In this document: piece by piece, positions 40,906 to 62,722 of the stretch
Layout: each line of letters starts with the position of its first letter
How positions within the stretch are numbered: the stretch's first letter is position 1
DNA from: Candidatus Nomurabacteria bacterium
GTDB taxonomy: Bacteria; Patescibacteriota; Minisyncoccia; Phycocordibacterales; UBA918
Assembly: GCA_020632155.1 (NCBI GenBank)
Contig: JACKGE010000001.1
Coordinates: 220,011 to 284,010 of the forward strand
DNA: 64,000 bases
Reading direction: 5' to 3'
Program-made: the position numbers and the translations under genes
Notes under the pieces: model-generated
Database searches by the model: none
Seen by the model: the letters and a program-made list of their open reading frames with translations, nothing else
Told to the model about the DNA's origin: nothing

Positions 40906-41211
40906 ATGTCAAAAGTTAAAGAAAAAGGTATTTCTCAAATATATAGTTACCTTGTATTGCCTGGCAAAGGTGATGATACTGTTCCTGATATTGCAGGGGC
41001 GGAATTAGAGCTCAAAGGCAAGGTTTTTAAGATGCTTAGAGAAATATACGAGAGCTCTGAAAAAGATTGCAAAATACCGATTTGTTTTGATATGGGTGAT
41101 GATGGGAAACAAGAAAACAAGGTTAGAGATGAGGTAATAGCCTTTGTTAAAAAACCAAGTGAAAAGAAAGGTCGCGTTTTGGCAAACGATATCTGGATGT
41201 ATAGTCGATAA
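40906..41211 (+). CDS. hypothetical protein
   Basis: ORF only. AT-rich. Confidence 0.3.
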   Translation: MSKVKEKGISQIYSYLVLPGKGDDTVPDIAGAELELKGKVFKMLREIYESSEKDCKIPICFDMGDDGKQENKVRDEVIAFVKKPSEKKGRVLANDIWMYSR

Positions 41212-41796
41212 AAAGTCTTGCATTAATCTCATTTAAAGTTTTTAGTGCTTCTTGTTCAGACATGCTGTAAACTCATGTTCAAGGACCGTTCGCTTTCTGT
41301 GATCCACTACATAGTCTTTTGATTAAGGTAGGTCAAAACAGTGAATATACCTAAGGAGACATTTATAAACTGATATCTTTTCGCGTTTTTTCAAATTCAG
41401 CACCACTTACCAAATCAACTGTCCACTATATCAAGTACCGTCACTTAGTAGTTCGTCATACCTTCTAACTTAATTGCCAGATTTGAATCATGAATACTTG
41501 AACGAAAAGACTCTGTAGAAGCTTCTTGTAATGTAACCAGAATCAAAGTTGAATCAAGATAAGACTGAGCTGATTGCTTAGTCTTTATCCAACTCTTCAG
41601 AAATTGAGAGTTTTTCATTATTGGCTCATATATTTCAGCATTATCAAATCAAAAACTTTTCGTGCACAAGTACCGAAAGAGATGAGTGGTTTCGCTGTGG
41701 TGAGTCTTTATGTACCAAAAAAATTGGAAATTCACCCAAGAATTATAAACAAAACTAGCACGAAACATAGTGTTTCGTTACTAGCTCTAACAACGG

Positions 41797-41881
41797 CGGA
41801 GAGAGGATTCGAACCCTCGGACCCCGTTAAGAGTCTCTGGTTTTCAAGACCAGCGCCTTAAACCAACTCAGCCATCTCTCC
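41797..41881 (-). tRNA. tRNA-Ser (anticodon TGA), type II with long variable arm
   Basis: Acceptor GGAGAGA/TCTCTCC, anticodon stem CTGGT/ACCAG, loop CTTGAAA, long variable arm, T-arm GAGGGTTCGAATCCTCT. Confidence 0.8.
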
Positions 41882-42053
41882 AGAAATATTCTATTGTATA
41901 AGTGGTTGGAAGTTTCGCCCACCTCACGCCTCATAAATATCGGCGTGTCGCGCTCAAATTGAATACTTGGAACGGATGAAAAGTGAAACAGTTCACTTTT
42001 CATCACTCAGCCATCCCTCCATTACTTGATGTGGCACGATAGTTAGCAAATAA

Positions 42054-55982: not shown

Positions 55983-56066
55983 GCCCAGGTGGTGAAATTG
56001 GTATACACGCTACCTTGAGGTGGTAGTGGCCGTTCGGTCGTGCTGGTTCAAGTCCAGTCCTGGGCA
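55983..56066 (+). tRNA. tRNA-Leu (anticodon GAG), type II
   Basis: GCCCAGGTGGTGAAATTGGTA... Anticodon loop CTTGAGG. Long variable arm. T-arm GGTTCAAGTCC. Confidence 0.8.
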
Positions 56067-56104
56067 CAAAATAAAATCCCCTTCACGGGGATTTTATTTT
56101 GTGC
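56067..56104 (+). terminator. terminator after tRNA-Leu
   Basis: AAAATAAAATCCCCTTCACGGGGATTTTATTTT. Confidence 0.65.
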
Positions 56105-56165
56105 CCAGGAAACACGCAAACTGCTTTGCGTGTGTCTGGACTTGAAAGGCACAGCTATGCCGTAG

Positions 56166-56238
56166 GCGAGCGAGCCGGGGTCGAGAGTACTTGGTGAAGT
56201 ATGAGTTAACGAAATACTTCACTTAGTAACTCGTGACC
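56166..56238 (+). repeat. tRNA-3'-flank repeat element, copy R3
   Basis: See R1. Lies 3' of tRNA-Leu and about 100 nt upstream of the 56342 gene. Confidence 0.6.
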
Positions 56239-56341
56239 AAGTCCAGTTTGAAGATTGTGACCACAAAATAAAAGCCCCTTTCGGCAACTCATGACCAAGT
56301 CCGTCTAATGCTGGGCATGCTGTGTTTGTTATACTTTTGTT

Positions 56342-57370
56342 ATGGAGAAGATGATTCAGCGAACCATTGAAAAGGAAGATCCTGTCCGTTCAAATTATGA
56401 TTTCATCGAAGTCAGTAACGAACAGAGGGAGCTTACCGCCAGACACATTTTACCTTACAGAGAAGATATTATTGCTGACGCAAGAAGCTTGCGCGAGAAA
56501 GTAGACAGAGGTTTACAAAAAGATGTAGTGACCCGTAAGCGGCTACGTGATTATGGTAAAGTTTACCCTAACGGTTTATGTGGTGAGATTCGTAATGCTT
56601 GGTTAGAGCAATTACCGAGACATCTTTTTGACTCCAGTTCGGCTGGCTTTTGGCAGATAAGGCAATTTCTAAGGAGTGGGGGACTTATGTCTGGTTTTTG
56701 GGGTGTAGATTCGGGGCGTTATTTTCAGAATGCTATCCAACTTGGCAGCTCCATTCTGGACGTTGCAAACGACACTGTGGATAGAAGTAAGGAACCAGTT
56801 GTTTTTTATGATGACTACGAAACTGCTCCGATAAAAAATTTGGAAGATTTTGAGTCGTTTGCGGATATAGCAGAACTTTACTGGAAAGATAGAATATACC
56901 CCAATACTATATTTCCTTACATAAGCCCGTACTGTCCGCTACTTGTCGAGCGTGAACTTCAGGGCCAAGGAAAGACGGACAAAGTAGGATTATTTTTCCC
57001 CGCTCACGATATGAAATTTTTTAGGCGCAAAAATGCCAACTCAGTAGGGGTAGAGGGAAGGAGGTTTGAGAGTGCTCATAGATTTATATTTTCTAGCAAA
57101 TATAGCCACAGAAAATTACCAGACAGTTTTTTTGAGGAAATCGTCAAAAACGATTTCCTAAAAGACGTTTCACAGCGCTACCCACATGTTTTTACCTTAA
57201 GTGGTGACCCGTCTTTGTTTGAAGAACGTTTCAATCACTTTTATCATGAGGGGGAGGACATAGATTCGCTTGTACAGGAAATACAAGTTATGCGTGAAAT
57301 AACAGAATTAATGAATCGCAGAGGACCGATTGCAGTTTATCCGAAGCCATTGGAGAGTTATGAAATATAA
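56342..57370 (+). CDS. hypothetical protein
   Basis: ORF. No motif. Confidence 0.45.
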   Translation: MEKMIQRTIEKEDPVRSNYDFIEVSNEQRELTARHILPYREDIIADARSLREKVDRGLQKDVVTRKRLRDYGKVYPNGLCGEIRNAWLEQLPRHLFDSSSAGFWQIRQFLRSGGLMSGFWGVDSGRYFQNAIQLGSSILDVANDTVDRSKEPVVFYDDYETAPIKNLEDFESFADIAELYWKDRIYPNTIFPYISPYCPLLVERELQGQGKTDKVGLFFPAHDMKFFRRKNANSVGVEGRRFESAHRFIFSSKYSHRKLPDSFFEEIVKNDFLKDVSQRYPHVFTLSGDPSLFEERFNHFYHEGEDIDSLVQEIQVMREITELMNRRGPIAVYPKPLESYEI

Positions 57371-58142: not shown

Positions 58143-58862
58143 TCAGATTCTTCGATACAACATCTTGAAGATGTCACGTTGGAATTTGGCCAGCGTGGAG
58201 TTTTCTATAATAGTTGCCATTTGTCCGCGGTAATCAATGAAGGCGATCTTGTTGCCATAGACTATTTGTGACACCCCGTAGTCAAATGGTAGGAATTCTT
58301 TTGGCACTATCTTGAGCGTCTCTTCAAGTGAGGGTTCGCGCGAGGCTACGAATTCTGGGTTGGTGATGACCACCCGTTCGAGCCTCATGGCATCGCGGCG
58401 TTTGACGTAGTCCTTAGGTACGCCAACGTTTAACATTTCTTCTTTTCCCTCAGAACTATAGCGATAGAACTCGTCTCCCTTTTGGAGGGTGCTTAAAATA
58501 TCCTCAAAGACAGCATGAATACCAACCTTGCCATCAAGGCGGCGGACGATCGGCGCTTTGCCTTGTTGTAGTTGGGTCAGTTCCGGTATGACGGTATTCA
58601 GCTCTTGATGCACCACTTCCAAAAGTGAGCGCAAACGCTCAGGCGGTTCGGCGGCGTAGTAAATGAGCTTGCCGATCTGTCGCTCGCTCACGAGGCCCTT
58701 TTCCTTGAGGTGGGGGAGGGCACGGTAAATAGCTGGCCGGTGCAGTTTACAGGTACGGGAAATACTGGAAATGGTCTGAGTCCCATACGTTAGGAGGTCC
58801 ATATAAATGGCCACTTCGTGTTTGCTGAGGCCAATGGCGGTCAATAATCTGGCTAGTTCCAT
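58143..58862 (-). CDS. TrmB-like HTH transcriptional regulator
   Basis: N-terminal winged HTH (HEVAIYMDLLTYGTQTISSISRTCKLHRPAIYRALPHLKEKGLV). Confidence 0.5.
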   Translation of the reverse strand: MELARLLTAIGLSKHEVAIYMDLLTYGTQTISSISRTCKLHRPAIYRALPHLKEKGLVSERQIGKLIYYAAEPPERLRSLLEVVHQELNTVIPELTQLQQGKAPIVRRLDGKVGIHAVFEDILSTLQKGDEFYRYSSEGKEEMLNVGVPKDYVKRRDAMRLERVVITNPEFVASREPSLEETLKIVPKEFLPFDYGVSQIVYGNKIAFIDYRGQMATIIENSTLAKFQRDIFKMLYRRI

Positions 58863-58877
58863 AGTTATTTTTTAATC

Positions 58878-58894
58878 TGTACCATTATGGTACA
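58878..58894. promoter_or_regulatory. 17 bp perfect palindrome TGTACCATTATGGTACA upstream of the regulator gene
   Basis: Seen in the sequence 16 nt upstream of the start codon. Candidate autoregulatory operator. Confidence 0.4.
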
Positions 58895-59253
58895 ACTTTT
58901 TTACACCTATAAAATGCTTATTTATATTTATACTAACATGTATTTTACTTTTACACAGTACACATTGTAAATATTTTTTACACAAAAAAGCATTCCGCTG
59001 CTATTCTACAGTTGAGGTTACAGAGAGACGGACCGACCAGCAGTAACCATAAGCACTTTCAAAACTTGCTAAATCTGACAAACCGAAGGAAAGGTTCCTT
59101 GCAAGGCTTTTCTTGTGGGGTGTTTTAGTCAGATTTAGCACTTCACTGAAGAGCTTTGCGAAGAGCGTTTCCTTTACGGGGACGCTCTTTCGCGTTCCGA
59201 CCCCGCGGTGGGGTCGGAAGATGGCGCGAAGTTCTCTACAACTGGAGGCAACA

Positions 59254-59589
59254 ATGACATTGATTCTGCAACTGGTGCTCGGCCTCGCGCTCATGTTGGT
59301 CGGGTGGGCCCTCTGGTATGCCCAGAGGAACGCATCGTGGAAGGGATGGATCGAAAAGACCTTCCTGCTGCCGGGCGACGACCTGTTCGCGACGGACCAG
59401 AACTACAGCGGCTACATCAAGTGGATTCGCTACGTCGCATTCCCGACCGGACTGGTCATGTTCGTTCCGACACCCATCCTCTACGACGCCATCATCGGCA
59501 TGATCGCTGCCGGCGTCTTCTGGTGGATGAACAGCCAGAAAGCGCGTCATGACCACCAAGTCCGTGACGCCGACAAGCCGGCCTCGTAG
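59254..59589 (+). CDS. small membrane protein (GC-rich cassette gene 1)
   Basis: ATG after a GGAGG RBS (the ORF track gives 59113). Two TM helices. Confidence 0.45.
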   Translation: MTLILQLVLGLALMLVGWALWYAQRNASWKGWIEKTFLLPGDDLFATDQNYSGYIKWIRYVAFPTGLVMFVPTPILYDAIIGMIAAGVFWWMNSQKARHDHQVRDADKPAS

Positions 59590-59664
59590 TCAGCTACGGT
59601 TTGGCCCGCAGTCGCCCTGCTAAATGGTCTGGCAGTCTGCTGCCAGACCATGCCTTCAACACAC

Positions 59665-59724
59665 AAATCTGACACGTTCCTTCAGCGCTGCTTGGTGACA
59701 GCAAGCAGTTTTGTCTGGAGCGTT
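59665..59724 (+). repeat. 60 bp exact direct repeat, copy A
   Basis: AAATCTGACACGTTCCTTCAGCGCTGCTTGGTGACAGCAAGCAGTTTTGTCTGGAGCGTT, identical to 60715-60774. Confidence 0.75.
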
Positions 59725-59739
59725 CTAAACGTTCCTCGT

Positions 59740-59803
59740 GTTCCAACCTCGCGGTGGGGTTGGGCGATAACGCGAAGTTCCTTGCCATGCAAAGGGGAAT
59801 CAA
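59740..59803 (+). promoter_or_regulatory. conserved 5' leader with hairpin (copy 2 of 3)
   Basis: GTTCCAACCTCGCGGTGGGGTTGG hairpin, then GCGATAACGCGAAGTTCC and an RBS. The copies at 59196-59253 and 60788-60849 show compensatory changes. Confidence 0.55.
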
Positions 59804-60667
59804 ATGCATACGCATCACAAGGAAGTCCTCGATCAAGTGGGTCGTCGTAAACAGCACTTTTTGTCCCAGTTGGTCTACTTTCTGGTAGTGGTCCTCGCGT
59901 GGGGTGGGGTATGGCTAATCGACTTCGTGAACCCTTCCTTCTTCCAATACCACTATCTGAATCAGGCACCTGTGTCTGAGGCTCTGGTCCACTTCTGGCC
60001 ATTGCTGGTCTACTTTCTGGTTCTGGTGGTTGCACCAAATATCACCGACTGGACCCAGCCGCATAGTCCGGCTGACGAACAAGCCTATATGTGGGGCCTG
60101 ATAACTGGCAACTTTGCCGCTGTGTGGGAAGAGCTGGGTTTTCGCTACGTTTTCATCTGCTATTCGATGATCTCGATAGCGGTAGTTAACTGGCTGCTCG
60201 GTACTTTTCTGCTCTGGGTAATGTTCGCCATGTGTGTCGTGACAGCGCTGCTGCTTATGTTCGTACCGGAACGAAGATTGTTTTCTGTCGTTCCGACACT
60301 GGCGGCGGCTGGTCTCTGGTGGGCTTCAGGAGCGGTCGATCCGCTTTACTTCCTCTATCAAGAGATCTGGATGCCGGTCCTAAACCTTGTCAGTTTTGGT
60401 AGCTACTCCGAAATCATGTACTCGGGTCAGTATCAAATGCTACTGGTTATGGGCGGTATTGGTGCCAACACGGCATTCCGCGATGGCCATAAATACCAAG
60501 GGCCGGTGGGGTGGTTGAACTCGTGGTTAGTAGGCTTTGTCCTTCTGTATGCGATGTTTACTTACGGCCTGCTCACCGCAATCGCACTCCACGGTATCTG
60601 GAACACCTTGTTTCATACCCACGAGTATGTGCGAGCAAAATCATCCCATATCTTGGCCCAATTCTGA
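59804..60667 (+). CDS. CPBP-family (Abi / CAAX-protease-like) intramembrane metalloprotease
   Basis: EELGFR (EExxxR), FxxxH region and HGIWN (HxxxN) motifs with a multi-TM topology. Confidence 0.7.
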   Translation: MHTHHKEVLDQVGRRKQHFLSQLVYFLVVVLAWGGVWLIDFVNPSFFQYHYLNQAPVSEALVHFWPLLVYFLVLVVAPNITDWTQPHSPADEQAYMWGLITGNFAAVWEELGFRYVFICYSMISIAVVNWLLGTFLLWVMFAMCVVTALLLMFVPERRLFSVVPTLAAAGLWWASGAVDPLYFLYQEIWMPVLNLVSFGSYSEIMYSGQYQMLLVMGGIGANTAFRDGHKYQGPVGWLNSWLVGFVLLYAMFTYGLLTAIALHGIWNTLFHTHEYVRAKSSHILAQF

Positions 60668-60714
60668 GCTACTGTCCGGGCGGTCTCCGCCCGGACAGGA
60701 ACCCTTTTCATACT

Positions 60715-60774
60715 AAATCTGACACGTTCCTTCAGCGCTGCTTGGTGACAGCAAGCAGTTTTGTCTGGAGCGTT
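60715..60774 (+). repeat. 60 bp exact direct repeat, copy B
   Basis: See copy A. Confidence 0.75.
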
Positions 60775-60849
60775 TAGCTCCCGTGCGTTCCAGTGCCATG
60801 TTGGTACTGGGAGATAACGCACTGTTCTTCACATGCCAAGGAGGCACAC

Positions 60850-61782
60850 ATGAAAACGAAACTGTTTGGCACACTCGCTGCTCTGATGATCGCAACCACG
60901 GCTCTGTCTGGATGCGGTACTGCAGTTGAAGTGCCGCCGGCCCATGTCGGCAAGCTGTCGACCGAGTCTGGTCTGCAGGAAGGCATTATCCATCCGTCGA
61001 AGTTCCGTCTGGAAGGATTCTGCTGGGTCTGTGACAACCTGATCTTGGTCGAGGCGTCCGACTACGGCGTCAAGGAGAGCATGAAGATCTATATGCCCAA
61101 GGATCAGCTCAACATCGACGTCGATGTGCGTGGTGTTTTCTCGATCAGCGCCGATCAGGCCAACGTCGAGCAGATCTTTTCTCGCGTTTCAGCCGATCAG
61201 GCTGAAGGAGAAGGTCGCATCCGCATTATCCCTATCACCAAGGTCTACAGCATCTACGCTGAGCCGGTGATCCGGGAGACCATCAGGTCGGCCCTTACCA
61301 AGTACACGATCGCGGAGGTGATGGAGAATCGCGAAGCGATCTCCACCGAGCTTGCCGGCGAGGTGCGTGATCGCCTCAAAGCAACGCCTATCACCACCAT
61401 CCGGTTTGGCTTGGCTGATGTTCAGCCGCCGGAAGTCATCGTGAAGGCCCGCGAAGCTGCCAAGGAGCGTGAGATCGCTATCCAGCGCGCCGAAGCAGAC
61501 AAGCAGGTTGCCCTCAAGGAGGCCGAAGCGGCCCTCGAAGTCGCAGTCAAGCAACAGCAGGTCGATCTCAAGGAGGCGGAAACGCAGGTCCTCGTGAACC
61601 AGAAGCTGGCTGAGGGCGTCAACGACGCGTTCGTCACCCAGCGCTGGCTGAAGGTCATGGACCAGCTTTCCAAGAACCCTGACGGCCGGGTGATCATCCT
61701 TCCGTTCGAAGCGATGAAAAACCCCGCTCTGCTGATGGGCACGTTCAACCAGGCCGTGGCAGAAGTCTCGGCTGACAAGTAA
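60850..61782 (+). CDS. SPFH/band-7 domain lipoprotein
   Basis: Lipobox LSGC. SPFH domain followed by an AEA-rich coiled coil. The ORF track begins at 60793. Confidence 0.7.
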   Translation: MKTKLFGTLAALMIATTALSGCGTAVEVPPAHVGKLSTESGLQEGIIHPSKFRLEGFCWVCDNLILVEASDYGVKESMKIYMPKDQLNIDVDVRGVFSISADQANVEQIFSRVSADQAEGEGRIRIIPITKVYSIYAEPVIRETIRSALTKYTIAEVMENREAISTELAGEVRDRLKATPITTIRFGLADVQPPEVIVKAREAAKEREIAIQRAEADKQVALKEAEAALEVAVKQQQVDLKEAETQVLVNQKLAEGVNDAFVTQRWLKVMDQLSKNPDGRVIILPFEAMKNPALLMGTFNQAVAEVSADK

Positions 61783-61793
61783 GGAGAAGCAAC

Positions 61794-62252
61794 ATGGACG
61801 TAACAGCGCTTTCTGTCGTCGCCTTTGCGACCGTGAAGATCATTCTGTGGCTTACGTTGATCATTATCGCGATCGGCGTGGCTCGGAAGGTCATCATCGA
61901 CAACAAGGCGGCGAGTGCCGAAGCAGCTGAAAATGGTGTTCAGGATGATACCTGGCACCTCAGCAACGCCCTTTGGGGCAACCGGCTGCGTATCGGAGTT
62001 GTCGTTGCTGTCGCACTAGTGGTGACGATGTTGTCACAGATCGAATTGGCCTACCGGCCGAAGACGTCCGTGAATATCAACAATCCGGTGCTGCAGGAAC
62101 AGCTGCGCGCGATCGATCAGGCCGAGCGGCCTGATATCAAACCGGCTCTCGGCGATAAGCGCGACAATGCGAATGCAGACTATAGCGCTCGCAATCGTGC
62201 GGAAAACGAGGCTGCGCGCGACAGCTTCCAGCAGCTGCCTTCCAGCAACTGA
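61794..62252 (+). CDS. membrane protein co-transcribed with the SPFH gene
   Basis: 12 nt gap after the SPFH gene. Two TM helices plus a disordered tail. Confidence 0.45.
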   Translation: MDVTALSVVAFATVKIILWLTLIIIAIGVARKVIIDNKAASAEAAENGVQDDTWHLSNALWGNRLRIGVVVAVALVVTMLSQIELAYRPKTSVNINNPVLQEQLRAIDQAERPDIKPALGDKRDNANADYSARNRAENEAARDSFQQLPSSN

Positions 62253-62282
62253 TCTTTGAGCCATCCATCCCGTCCGCGGGGT

Positions 62283-62312
62283 GGGAAACTATCAGCTCGG
62301 CGCTTTGCGCCG
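62283..62312 (+). terminator. rho-independent terminator
   Basis: AGCTCGGCGCTTTGCGCCGAGCTTTTCTTTTT. Confidence 0.65.
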
Positions 62313-62323
62313 AGCTTTTCTTT

Positions 62324-62722
62324 TTACTGTAGGTAGTTTCCAAGCAGGTAACTGAGCGTCGCAACAGTAGCGCCGAGGACTGTTCCCCAGAGGATATCAA
62401 CGACAGTCACCATAAGCGGCCAGTCTCTGAGAGTGGCATGGTTGGTAAGGTCGTAGGTGGCGTACGTCACGAGGCCAAAGAGGGCACCGAGCACCAGCGC
62501 CTTGCTAAGCGAGTGCACCTCAAGCGCGGGCAGAACTGCAAAAAATAAGAGCCCAGCTACAAATACAAAGTAGAACACAACAGCCGCTGGCCACACTACC
62601 GGACCGAGCAGTTCACCAAGACGTGACTGGTAGAAGTCTTTGGCAATAACGCCAAGCCATAGCAGGTCAAATAAGACAAAGATAGGAATCGTAAGGACGT
62701 AGAGCAGTACGTAGTGCACCAT
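62324..62722 (-). CDS. DUF2177-like small membrane protein
   Basis: Four TM helices. Confidence 0.45.
   Translation of the reverse strand: MVHYVLLYVLTIPIFVLFDLLWLGVIAKDFYQSRLGELLGPVVWPAAVVFYFVFVAGLLFFAVLPALEVHSLSKALVLGALFGLVTYATYDLTNHATLRDWPLMVTVVDILWGTVLGATVATLSYLLGNYLQ

Follow-up and report, generated by a model that had tools for sequence, protein, structure and literature searches.

A candidate two-state leader RNA upstream of membrane-protein genes in Patescibacteria

The 5′ untranslated region (5′ UTR) of Escherichia coli cspA is a bistable mRNA thermosensor, and intercistronic stem-loops and repetitive extragenic palindromic (REP)-type elements set segmental mRNA stability, for example in malEFG. 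Patescibacteria are ultrasmall epibiotic bacteria that account for a large part of bacterial diversity and in which gene regulation is almost uncharted; no structured regulatory RNA dedicated to them was found in Rfam or in a literature search. Here we describe a leader of ~240 nt (~59014–59253), termed type 1, that lies before the first of four membrane-protein genes in a 64,000-nt stretch from Candidatus Nomurabacteria (GCA_020632155.1, contig JACKGE010000001.1, positions 220,011–284,010, forward strand; hereafter the window, to which all coordinates refer). Mutually exclusive structures that share nucleotides, one criterion for riboswitches and attenuators, were found in this leader, with compensatory changes in both sets. 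The leader is very probably a selected RNA structure, and the probability that it switches, as a two-state cis-acting RNA, is put at roughly 0.55. A first-pass annotation of the window, made from the letters and a list of open reading frames (ORFs), had caught the hairpin that forms the downstream third of the element (P3) and a 60-bp repeat; the larger, putatively bistable element, the neighbouring regulator and the division into two kinds of leader are new here.

Sequence upstream of gene 1 could be aligned with that before the first gene behind trmB in related loci. Type-1 leaders are represented by 12 distinct Patescibacteria loci, and a covariance model built from these copies scores each of them at 105–136 bits. 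Five of the copies were added by an exact-pattern scan of Joint Genome Institute (JGI) metagenomes, and an exact-pattern scan of viral contigs gave no match; the covariance model hit the window once and matched none of the 61 other SPFH loci. The Rfam scan proposed in the first-pass annotation matched no family on the leaders: Rfam 15 at the gathering threshold returned six tRNAs from the window, and at E ≤ 10 only sub-threshold microRNA, small nucleolar RNA and small RNA noise was obtained for 58800–62400. No paper was found on such a leader in Patescibacteria or before SPFH genes. The type-1 leader constitutes a new structured-RNA family. Its parts are listed in Table 1. In L001, L002, L071, L072 and L074 the position of the 5′-proximal hairpin P0 is also taken by a hairpin, whose stem sequence differs from that of the window (by eye, unscored). 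In 59088–59127 a GGAAAGG is followed 4 nt on by TTG CAA GGC TTT TCT..., a frame that is open for 9 codons in the window; it is open in 12/12 leaders, with its stop at 5 to >17 codons. Because the stop varies and the third positions are invariant, a leader peptide is a less good reading than constraint on the RNA.

Two folds were defined. State 1 consists of a 12-bp stem, a:a′, which encloses the invariant block folded as P2, together with hairpin 2. State 2 is a long hairpin of ~35 bp, composed of b:b′, A:B1 and a basal helix, with a′ in the apical loop; it is the single structure that RNAalifold predicts on the type-1 core. The invariant block either folds on itself as P2 or pairs through 59101–59112 with B1 and through 59084–59090 with the top of hairpin 2. 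State 2 was counted on a model-based alignment and state 1 on a full-length alignment. Because MAFFT and the first covariance model misregistered b:b′ in L066 and L075 and hairpin 2 in four leaders (alignments A4/A6), b:b′ was scored with an anchor-based script and hairpin 2 on alignment A3.

For state 2, 94.8% of cells were paired, 12/32 pairs were changed on both sides, and the covariation score was 0.353, compared with 0.229 ± 0.016 for shuffles (0/500 reached it) and no more than 0.165 when partners were slid. The informative parts were the apical helix b:b′, A:B1 and the basal helix. Helix b:b′ was present in 12/12 leaders as 5–9 bp of unrelated sequence, with 5/7 pairs changed on both sides. 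Compensatory changes in A:B1 were G-C to A-U in L065 and U-A to C-G in L066 and L075. The basal helix, in which the 5′ segment 59084–59090 pairs with bases of the hairpin-2 loop and inner arm, covaried through CGAAGG/CCUUCG, UGGAGG/CCUCCA (L077), GUAGG/CCUAC (L002) and AAAAGG/CC-UUUU (L066).

For state 1, 98.6% of cells were paired in a:a′, and 6/12 pairs were doubly changed over six sequence variants (among them AUCAAAUGUGAA/UUCACAUUUGAU and AACAAAUAUAAC/GUUAUAUUUGU; the types include AAAUGUGAA and AAAUAUAAC). Hairpin 2 was paired in 100% of cells, with three pairs doubly changed; P2 was 97.5% paired and hardly varied. The pairing of B1 with the box after P3 is regarded as unproven, since 80% of its cells were paired and no pair was doubly changed.

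The 3′ arm b′ starts on the last base of a′ (right_offset = 0) in 11/12 leaders, and UUUUA lies between b and a′. No nucleotide separates a′ from b′ and 5 nt separate b from a′, so that helices a:a′ and b:b′ are mutually exclusive. Their coexistence as a pseudoknot was rejected by geometric reasoning, as a 12-bp helix would need to be bridged by only 5 nt. Competition for the same bases is also seen between the basal helix and the upper part of hairpin 2. G.U pairs outnumbered A.C oppositions by 73:6 in the long hairpin and by 10:0 in hairpin 2, and the structure is therefore read as RNA on the gene strand; the first-pass proposal of a selected RNA or DNA structure is thereby narrowed to the former.

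Energies were computed with either a:a′ or A:B1 enforced and were nearly equal (−88.4/−87.6 kcal/mol in the window, −59.0/−58.9 in L066, −64.0/−64.0 in L075); the gap between the ensemble energies of the two states was <3 kcal/mol in 8/12 leaders at 37°C, with totals of −59 to −88 kcal/mol. In growing chains the predicted minimum free energy (MFE) fold contained a:a′ until b′ was made in 12/12 leaders and A:B1 once B1 was made in 11/12, and it returned to a:a′ in 7/12 once the post-P3 box was present. Together, near-equal energies and growing-chain flips are, in these models, the behaviour to be expected of a kinetically controlled switch.

P3 sits 20–30 nt upstream of the ribosome-binding site (RBS), and its first base pairs include the U's that follow hairpin 2. 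The first-pass annotation had described a hairpin before the RBS of three genes with stems that differ and still pair, and this was borne out: the two-helix layout was the MFE fold in 16/16 leaders (z −1.1 to −4.8 against dinucleotide shuffles). Compensatory changes in related genomes, which had been named there as the test, were found in the 8 best-aligned copies, where 88% of cells were paired, 10/16 pairs were doubly changed and the covariation score was 0.42, compared with 0.234 ± 0.033 for shuffles (0/500 reached it) and at most 0.18 for slid controls. In leaders 1–3 of the window the inner stems are CCGACCCC/GGGGTCGG, CCAACCTC/GGGGTTGG and CCAGTGCC/GGTACTGG, the outer helices CGCGTT/GGCGCG, CGTGTT/AACGCG and GTGCGTT/AACGCAC, and the purine-rich 5-nt RRGAU-type bulges on the 3′ side AAGAU, GCGAU and GAGAU. 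The motif G.GATAACGC..GTTC, earlier given for all three leaders, is literal in leaders 2 and 3, whereas leader 1 has AGATGGCGCGAAGTTC.

The three leaders, earlier given one common layout, are not equivalent; leader 1 has the 12-bp inverted repeat, the invariant 27-nt block and the alternative pairings. Leaders 2 and 3, termed type 2, begin with an exact 60-nt direct repeat (59665–59724 = 60715–60774), as first reported, and the repeat is intact in a second strain. The type-2 layout follows a GC-rich hairpin and consists of the box (C)AAAUCUGAC without a partner, a long hairpin (ACGTTCC..CTGCTTG-loop-CAAGCAG..GGAGCGT), a small hairpin (GGAGC/GCUCC or GGAGCGUU/AACGUUCC) that competes for the GGAGC of the long hairpin, P3, the post-P3 box and the RBS. 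The same layout was found behind a GC-rich hairpin in L002 (inner stem CAGGGCU/AGCCCUG) and L072 (ACGUUCC/GGAGCGU to ACAUUCC/GGAGUGU). These four copies, two of which share the identical 60 nt, are too few for covariation statistics. The A-block, B and hairpin-2 portions of type 1 can be aligned with type-2 leaders, and we take the latter to be abbreviated derivatives of type 1. Leader 2 is a mosaic: it shares its first 60 nt with leader 3, while its P3 resembles the leader 1 P3 at 82% identity.

The apical loop GUCAGAUUUAG (59128–59138) is complementary to the boxes of the inner leaders at 59665–59673 (9 nt) and 60713–60723 (11 nt), and the same box variant was present in every locus with internal leaders. 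Since the loop is complementary both to its own 5′ box and to the downstream boxes, one sensing event could be passed along the mRNA; the input would be a metabolite, a protein or a membrane-stress signal. A new Patescibacteria-specific class of switch, in which two selected conformers are reused in shortened form and sensing is passed along the mRNA by loop–box pairing, is possible, and we consider it doubtful.

As a read-out, kinetically gated attenuation at hairpin 2 and its UUU is put forward tentatively and with low confidence. Whether a:a′ persists while B1 and hairpin 2 are transcribed would set the fold and hence the amount of downstream message or protein. State 1, in which the 5′ arm of hairpin 2 would be free, would be off; in state 2 the basal helix would zip before the 3′ arm of hairpin 2 is made, giving read-through. 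Gated attenuation is preferred because of this kinetic order, and state-dependent processing or stability would be the main alternative read-out.

Several observations weigh against a switch. The terminator scan (≥5 T in 8) did not call hairpin 2 in the window, L066 or L071; in the window the hairpin is followed by TTTCGCGTT, and the U-run is only 3–4 nt. In most leaders hairpin 2 is in the predicted MFE fold of both states. Accessibility of the RBS and of the start, compared state against state in the 12 leaders, differed by a mean of ~0 and +0.05, with inconsistent sign. Temperatures of 10–55°C shifted the balance of states by ~1–3 kcal/mol in most leaders, in no consistent direction. P2 lies in the invariant block and so gives no covariation signal, and the type-1 leader has neither a nameable ligand nor a nameable protein partner, in contrast to riboswitch and attenuator leaders. 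Helix a:a′ is almost purely Watson–Crick (140 Watson–Crick, 2 G.U and 2 A.C cells), and a DNA-level element is therefore equally possible for this part. The data set comprises 12 sequences with six a:a′ variants, all from one clade. Transcription of the leader and its 5′ end are inferred from sequence. Type-2 leaders are without a′ and without a U-run after the small hairpin, and would therefore not work in the same way as type 1.

Other read-outs were tried and rejected. RBS masking, including an RNA thermometer, was set aside as accessibility of the RBS and start showed no consistent difference between states, and a thermosensor as the temperature dependence was weak and inconsistent. An anti-RBS role for b′ was rejected, since pairing of b′ with the RBS is confined to the leaders of the window, L064 and L071.

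The explanation that survives best beside a switch, though an unlikely one, is mRNA punctuation without switching. The hairpins would then be stabilisers and the A/U-rich, single-stranded box (A)AAUCUGAC between them an endonuclease site, dividing the message into segments of different stability; GC-rich stems would guard the 3′ ends and P0 and P3 the 5′ ends, and a′ would merely mask the cut site in leader 1. Such a scheme agrees with the inter-gene hairpins, which are perfect 12-bp stems without U-tracts and have the box ~15 nt further on, with the same hairpin-then-box layout in L002 and L072, and with a box whose AAAU core is invariant while its flanks vary; the computations likewise gave no state-dependent effect on a terminator or RBS. 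Punctuation leaves unexplained, however, the compensatory changes in two incompatible sets of helices, the 27-nt invariant block and the covariation of the hairpin-2 loop with a segment 80 nt upstream.

Somewhat less probable still is a single RNA fold, made of the long hairpin, hairpin 2 and P3, in which a and a′ are paired sites in DNA, bound by a protein that might be the neighbouring regulator; the apparent covariation of a:a′ would then be that of co-evolving half-sites. The strand symmetry of a:a′ and its near lack of wobbles agree with this, the occurrence of the box alone in type-2 leaders suggests sequence-specific recognition, and a DNA-binding regulator is always adjacent. The half-sites are, however, 48 bp apart, are not individually palindromic and differ from the GTACA palindromes of the promoter; the competition of the basal helix with hairpin 2 indicates two RNA folds even without a:a′, and in 12/12 leaders nascent RNA is predicted to fold as a:a′.

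Integron-like recombination sites, with the 60-bp element and hairpins as cassette borders through which genes would be inserted behind a fixed promoter, are improbable. Gene content behind the type-1 leader does differ between genomes, the 60 nt of identity end abruptly with much less similarity on either side, leader 2 is a mosaic, and the cassette is identical between strains with a diverged flank. Against this, no integrase or recombinase was found among the neighbour genes, the core order GTT...AAC is the reverse of attC RYYYAAC...GTTRRRY, the element lies upstream of each gene's RBS with conserved RNA-type structure and strand-specific G.U pairs, and type-2 leaders show compensatory changes between genomes where frozen repeats would be expected. 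A true attC site or gene cassette was ruled out by the motif order (GCGTT...AACGC) and the lack of intI nearby. A dispersed REP element or miniature inverted-repeat transposable element was rejected as the box and the model match this locus only within the 64 kb. Chance similarity with recent local duplication and no selected structure, for which the 60 identical nt in two of three leaders could be cited, is dismissed: 12 loci, drawn from different samples and genomes, repeat the architecture with their stems swapped for unrelated complements, and the statistics are far past the shuffled and slid controls.

The four ORFs of 59000–62320 lie on one strand (+) and all encode membrane proteins. 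The first-pass annotation had three independent units here, each with a terminator and an upstream element; this did not hold. The scan of the window for promoters and terminators found no promoter-like site upstream of gene 2 or gene 3, and the two inter-gene hairpins (59624–59651 and 60672–60698), considered as canonical terminators, were rejected since they fail the terminator scan and have no U-tract. The sole canonical terminator of the region is the hairpin at 62294–62316 with its T-run. As there is no promoter-like site before genes 2 or 3, the simplest and likeliest reading is a single operon over 58.9–62.3 kb, with the full leader first and abbreviated leaders inside.

The divergent gene upstream encodes a regulator that matches PF01978 with E 4e-14 and 52.5 bits (cut-off 25.6), placing it in the TrmB winged-helix family. 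The type-1 leader adjoins a divergent TrmB gene wherever the contig reaches; a TrmB gene of 239–240 aa is in the same divergent position in L001, L002, L064, L065, L077 and L088. In the closest genomes (L001, L002, L064, L065 and L077) an SPFH gene and a partner of ~148 aa lie directly behind the divergent 239-aa TrmB gene. The AT-rich spacer shared with the TrmB gene is the only conserved promoter/operator region of the operon. Its part 58863–59010 holds palindromes and promoter-like boxes, in the same arrangement in at least 10 related loci. The first palindrome, TGTAC..GTACA(ACTTTT), is kept at the same site in related loci, and the second, AGTACA-N3-TGTAC(T), in at least 10 loci; the TrmB-family regulator probably binds these two GTACA-type palindromes. 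In the promoter region TTTTTTACACAA is conserved, with a TATAGT-like hexamer at a fixed distance in related loci, and transcription would start in this spacer, at the candidate promoter.

Table 1. Features of the type-1 leader, the inner leaders and the surrounding operon (coordinates of the window).
Feature	Coordinates	Strand	Remarks
trmB-family helix-turn-helix (HTH) regulator gene, divergent	58143–58862	−	239 aa; Pfam TrmB
Palindrome TGTACCATTATGGTACA, candidate operator 1	58878–58894	.	adjoins trmB start
Palindrome AGTACAcatTGTAA, candidate operator 2	58957–58970	.	just upstream of −35-like box
Candidate promoter	58977–59007	+	TTTACA 58977–58982, 19-bp spacer, TATTCT 59002–59007
P0, 5′-proximal hairpin GGTTAC...GTAACC	59016–59048	+	purine-rich loop; by eye
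Box a GCTAAATCTGAC	59068–59079	+	5′ arm of 12-bp stem a:a′
Invariant block CGAAGGAAAGGTTCCTTGCAAGGCTTTTC	59084–59112	+	about 27 invariant columns
b GTGGGGTG	59115–59122	+	5′ arm of b:b′; variable segment
a′ GTCAGATTTAGC	59128–59139	+	3′ arm of a:a′ or apical loop of long hairpin
b′ CACTTCAC	59139–59146	+	starts on last base of a′
B1 GAAGAGCTTTGC	59148–59159	+	pairs with 59101–59112 (A:B1) or box after P3
Hairpin 2, AAGAGCG...CGCTCTT	59161–59190	+	then invariant TTT
P3 of leader 1	59188–59231	+	outer helix, inner stem CCGACCCC/GGGGTCGG, bulge AAGAT; z = −4.15
Conserved post-P3 box AAGTTCTCTACAAC (consensus AAGTTCTTCACAAC) and RBS	59229–59248	+	RBS GGAGG 59244–59248
Gene 1, membrane protein	59254–59589	+	111 aa; two or three hydrophobic helices; GC3 0.84; MCB9811582.1
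GC-rich hairpin 3′ of gene 1	59624–59651	+	perfect, 12 bp; without U-tract
60-nt repeat, copy 1	59665–59724	+	5′ part of type-2 leader a; box AAATCTGAC, then long hairpin
Leader 2: hairpin 2′ (GGAGCGTT/AACGTTCC) and P3	59717–59774	+	P3 59737–59774, z = −2.73
Gene 2, polytopic membrane protein	59804–60667	+	287 aa; CPBP/Rce1-like by motifs only
GC-rich hairpin 3′ of gene 2	60672–60698	+	perfect, 12 bp; without canonical U-tract
60-nt repeat, copy 2	60715–60774	+	5′ part of type-2 leader b
Leader 3: hairpin 2′ (GGAGC/GCTCC), P3, box TGTTCTTCACAT, RBS AAGGAGG	60767–60844	+	P3 60783–60822, z = −4.73
Gene 3, SPFH/Band_7 lipoprotein	60850–61782	+	310 aa; signal peptide and lipobox LSGC; Pfam
Gene 4, membrane protein	61794–62252	+	152 aa; always paired with SPFH gene
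Canonical intrinsic terminator, operon end	62294–62326	+	10-bp stem (hairpin 62294–62316), then T-run TTTTCTTTTT

The gene content first assigned to the operon stands for the small membrane protein, the SPFH lipoprotein and the trailing membrane protein; the call of a CPBP-family protease holds at the level of motifs only. The window proteins are identical to 'hypothetical proteins' in NCBI, of metagenome-assembled genomes (MAGs) labelled Candidatus Nomurabacteria (H6783) and Candidatus Kaiserbacteria (KC722), and the gene 1 product (MCB9811582.1) is one so annotated; the closest related loci carry the label Candidatus Saccharibacteria. Gene 3 matches PF01145 with E 7e-13 and 49.4 bits (cut-off 23.6), which places its product in the SPFH/Band 7 family; it has 367 relatives, of which the best 120 are 50–79% identical and come from many very different phyla. 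An ORF of 137–153 aa lies 3′ of the SPFH gene in L001, L002, L064–L066 and L080–L083.

The gene 2 product matched nothing in Pfam, even at E ≤ 10, and PF02517 was matched weakly by 7/25 of its homologues (best E 0.0052). A profile search against PDB sequences found none, and an AlphaFold model (predicted local distance difference test, pLDDT, 90.4) gave no similar fold in the PDB with Foldseek. The motifs EExxxR, FxxxH and HxxxN/D in that order, which we take to be the signature of CPBP/Rce1-like intramembrane proteases, are present as WEELGFRY, FRDGH and HGIWN, and E110, R114, F225, H229 and H263 are invariant among the 25 sequences of the family, with E109 nearly so. Because there is no Pfam match of its own, the homologue matches are weak and Foldseek found no match, 'CPBP-like' is used here as a motif-level assignment. 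The suggested link of these genes to bacteriocin immunity was not upheld: no bacteriocin gene lies nearby, and the PADLOC defence models returned no defence system for the locus, only HTH noise on the regulator.

While varied, the genes that follow type-1 leaders all encode membrane proteins: an SPFH pair in six loci, a CPBP-like homologue of gene 2 directly behind the leader in L074, a 267-aa membrane protein in L073, and small hydrophobic proteins in the window, L002 and L072. In L071 (minus strand, 131–1972) the gene behind the leader encodes a membrane protein of 614 aa that matches Band_7 weakly (E 0.003); this protein is possibly a long relative of flotillins, controlled in the same way.

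The region is richer in GC than the rest of the window, as first noted, at 55.2% compared with 48.0% and not the ~60% then given. The anomaly is stronger in the GC content of third codon positions (GC3), which is 0.84, 0.62, 0.73 and 0.68 in genes 1–4 compared with 0.474 ± 0.071 in 47 other ORFs. In L001 the SPFH pair has 59–62% GC in a genome of ~42%. SPFH genes with a ~148-aa partner were also seen at 65–71% amino-acid identity in non-Patescibacteria neighbourhoods (L080–L087), with GST and SspB or Usp and DctP; these Proteobacteria-like neighbourhoods are without any leader element. Identity of the SPFH pair to the non-Patescibacteria copies is nearly as high as that among Patescibacteria genomes. 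The two-gene SPFH module moves between phyla.

A second strain (L089) is 100% identical over 58997–62262, including the intact 60-nt repeat, and carries 26 differences within the ~300 bp that follow (62263–62564; a flank ~8% divergent), the identity breaking ~10 nt past the last stop codon. An identical cassette beside a diverged flank points to a recent exchange or sweep of the cassette. The horizontal origin that the first-pass annotation wished to see checked by GC and codon usage would fit for all four membrane genes, given the GC3 anomaly, the cross-phylum SPFH pair (~70%) and the identity in L089. Five short metagenome contigs with gene 1 (L090–L094) end inside or just past the 60-nt repeat; the repeat breaks short-read assemblies, and such cassettes are therefore probably under-assembled in MAGs.

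Neighbour genes with Pfam matches among the window proteins were TrmB, NUDIX, DUF2177 and GH3, and the upstream position of the NUDIX gene is kept in L077. Just upstream of the NUDIX and trmB genes, 55983–57370 holds tRNA-Leu(GAG) followed by a 342-aa ORF of 41% GC and GC3 0.37 that matched no family. Elsewhere in the window, GC falls to 37% over the 1 kb of 41001–42000, which contains tRNA-Ser(TGA) at 41795–41881.

With a fixed address beside a TrmB-family regulator, a two-state design and a membrane-only regulon, the leader is a compact and testable case. It could serve as a handle on envelope control in Patescibacteria, which is relevant to life on the surface of a host cell, and as an orphan-switch candidate for ligand hunting. 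The operon also appears to show foreign genes plugged in behind a resident regulatory platform.

Among known systems, integron attC sites resemble the elements described here in being structured with poor sequence conservation, in their place between cassettes, in covarying stems and in the variable genes downstream; the present elements differ in the reversed core order, the lack of an integrase, the position 5′ of each RBS and the G.U bias of the coding strand. The type-1 leader is like riboswitch and attenuator leaders (purine, SAM-I, PyrR, LicT/RAT) in its long 5′ sequence on the gene strand, in a closing stem (a:a′) round a conserved core whose 3′ side has an alternative partner, and in a downstream GC-rich hairpin followed by U's, both conformers being conserved. 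It differs from them in that its closing stem (P1) is 12 bp of perfect Watson–Crick pairs, which is unusually long, in a U-run that fails the terminator consensus scan, in having no Rfam match, and in a core that is one 27-nt block instead of junction nucleotides. The cspA 5′ UTR is alike in being a long leader with two global folds without a ligand and stress-related genes downstream, whereas the balance of states here moves by only the few kcal/mol given above, with no cold-box or FourU-type masking of the RBS. The inner elements share with malEFG-type stem-loops and REP elements the GC-rich hairpins between cistrons without U-tracts and the repetition within one operon. Unlike REP-type elements, the repeats here are locus-specific, extend into a conserved multi-helix structure that reaches up to the RBS, and are homologous to the first leader.

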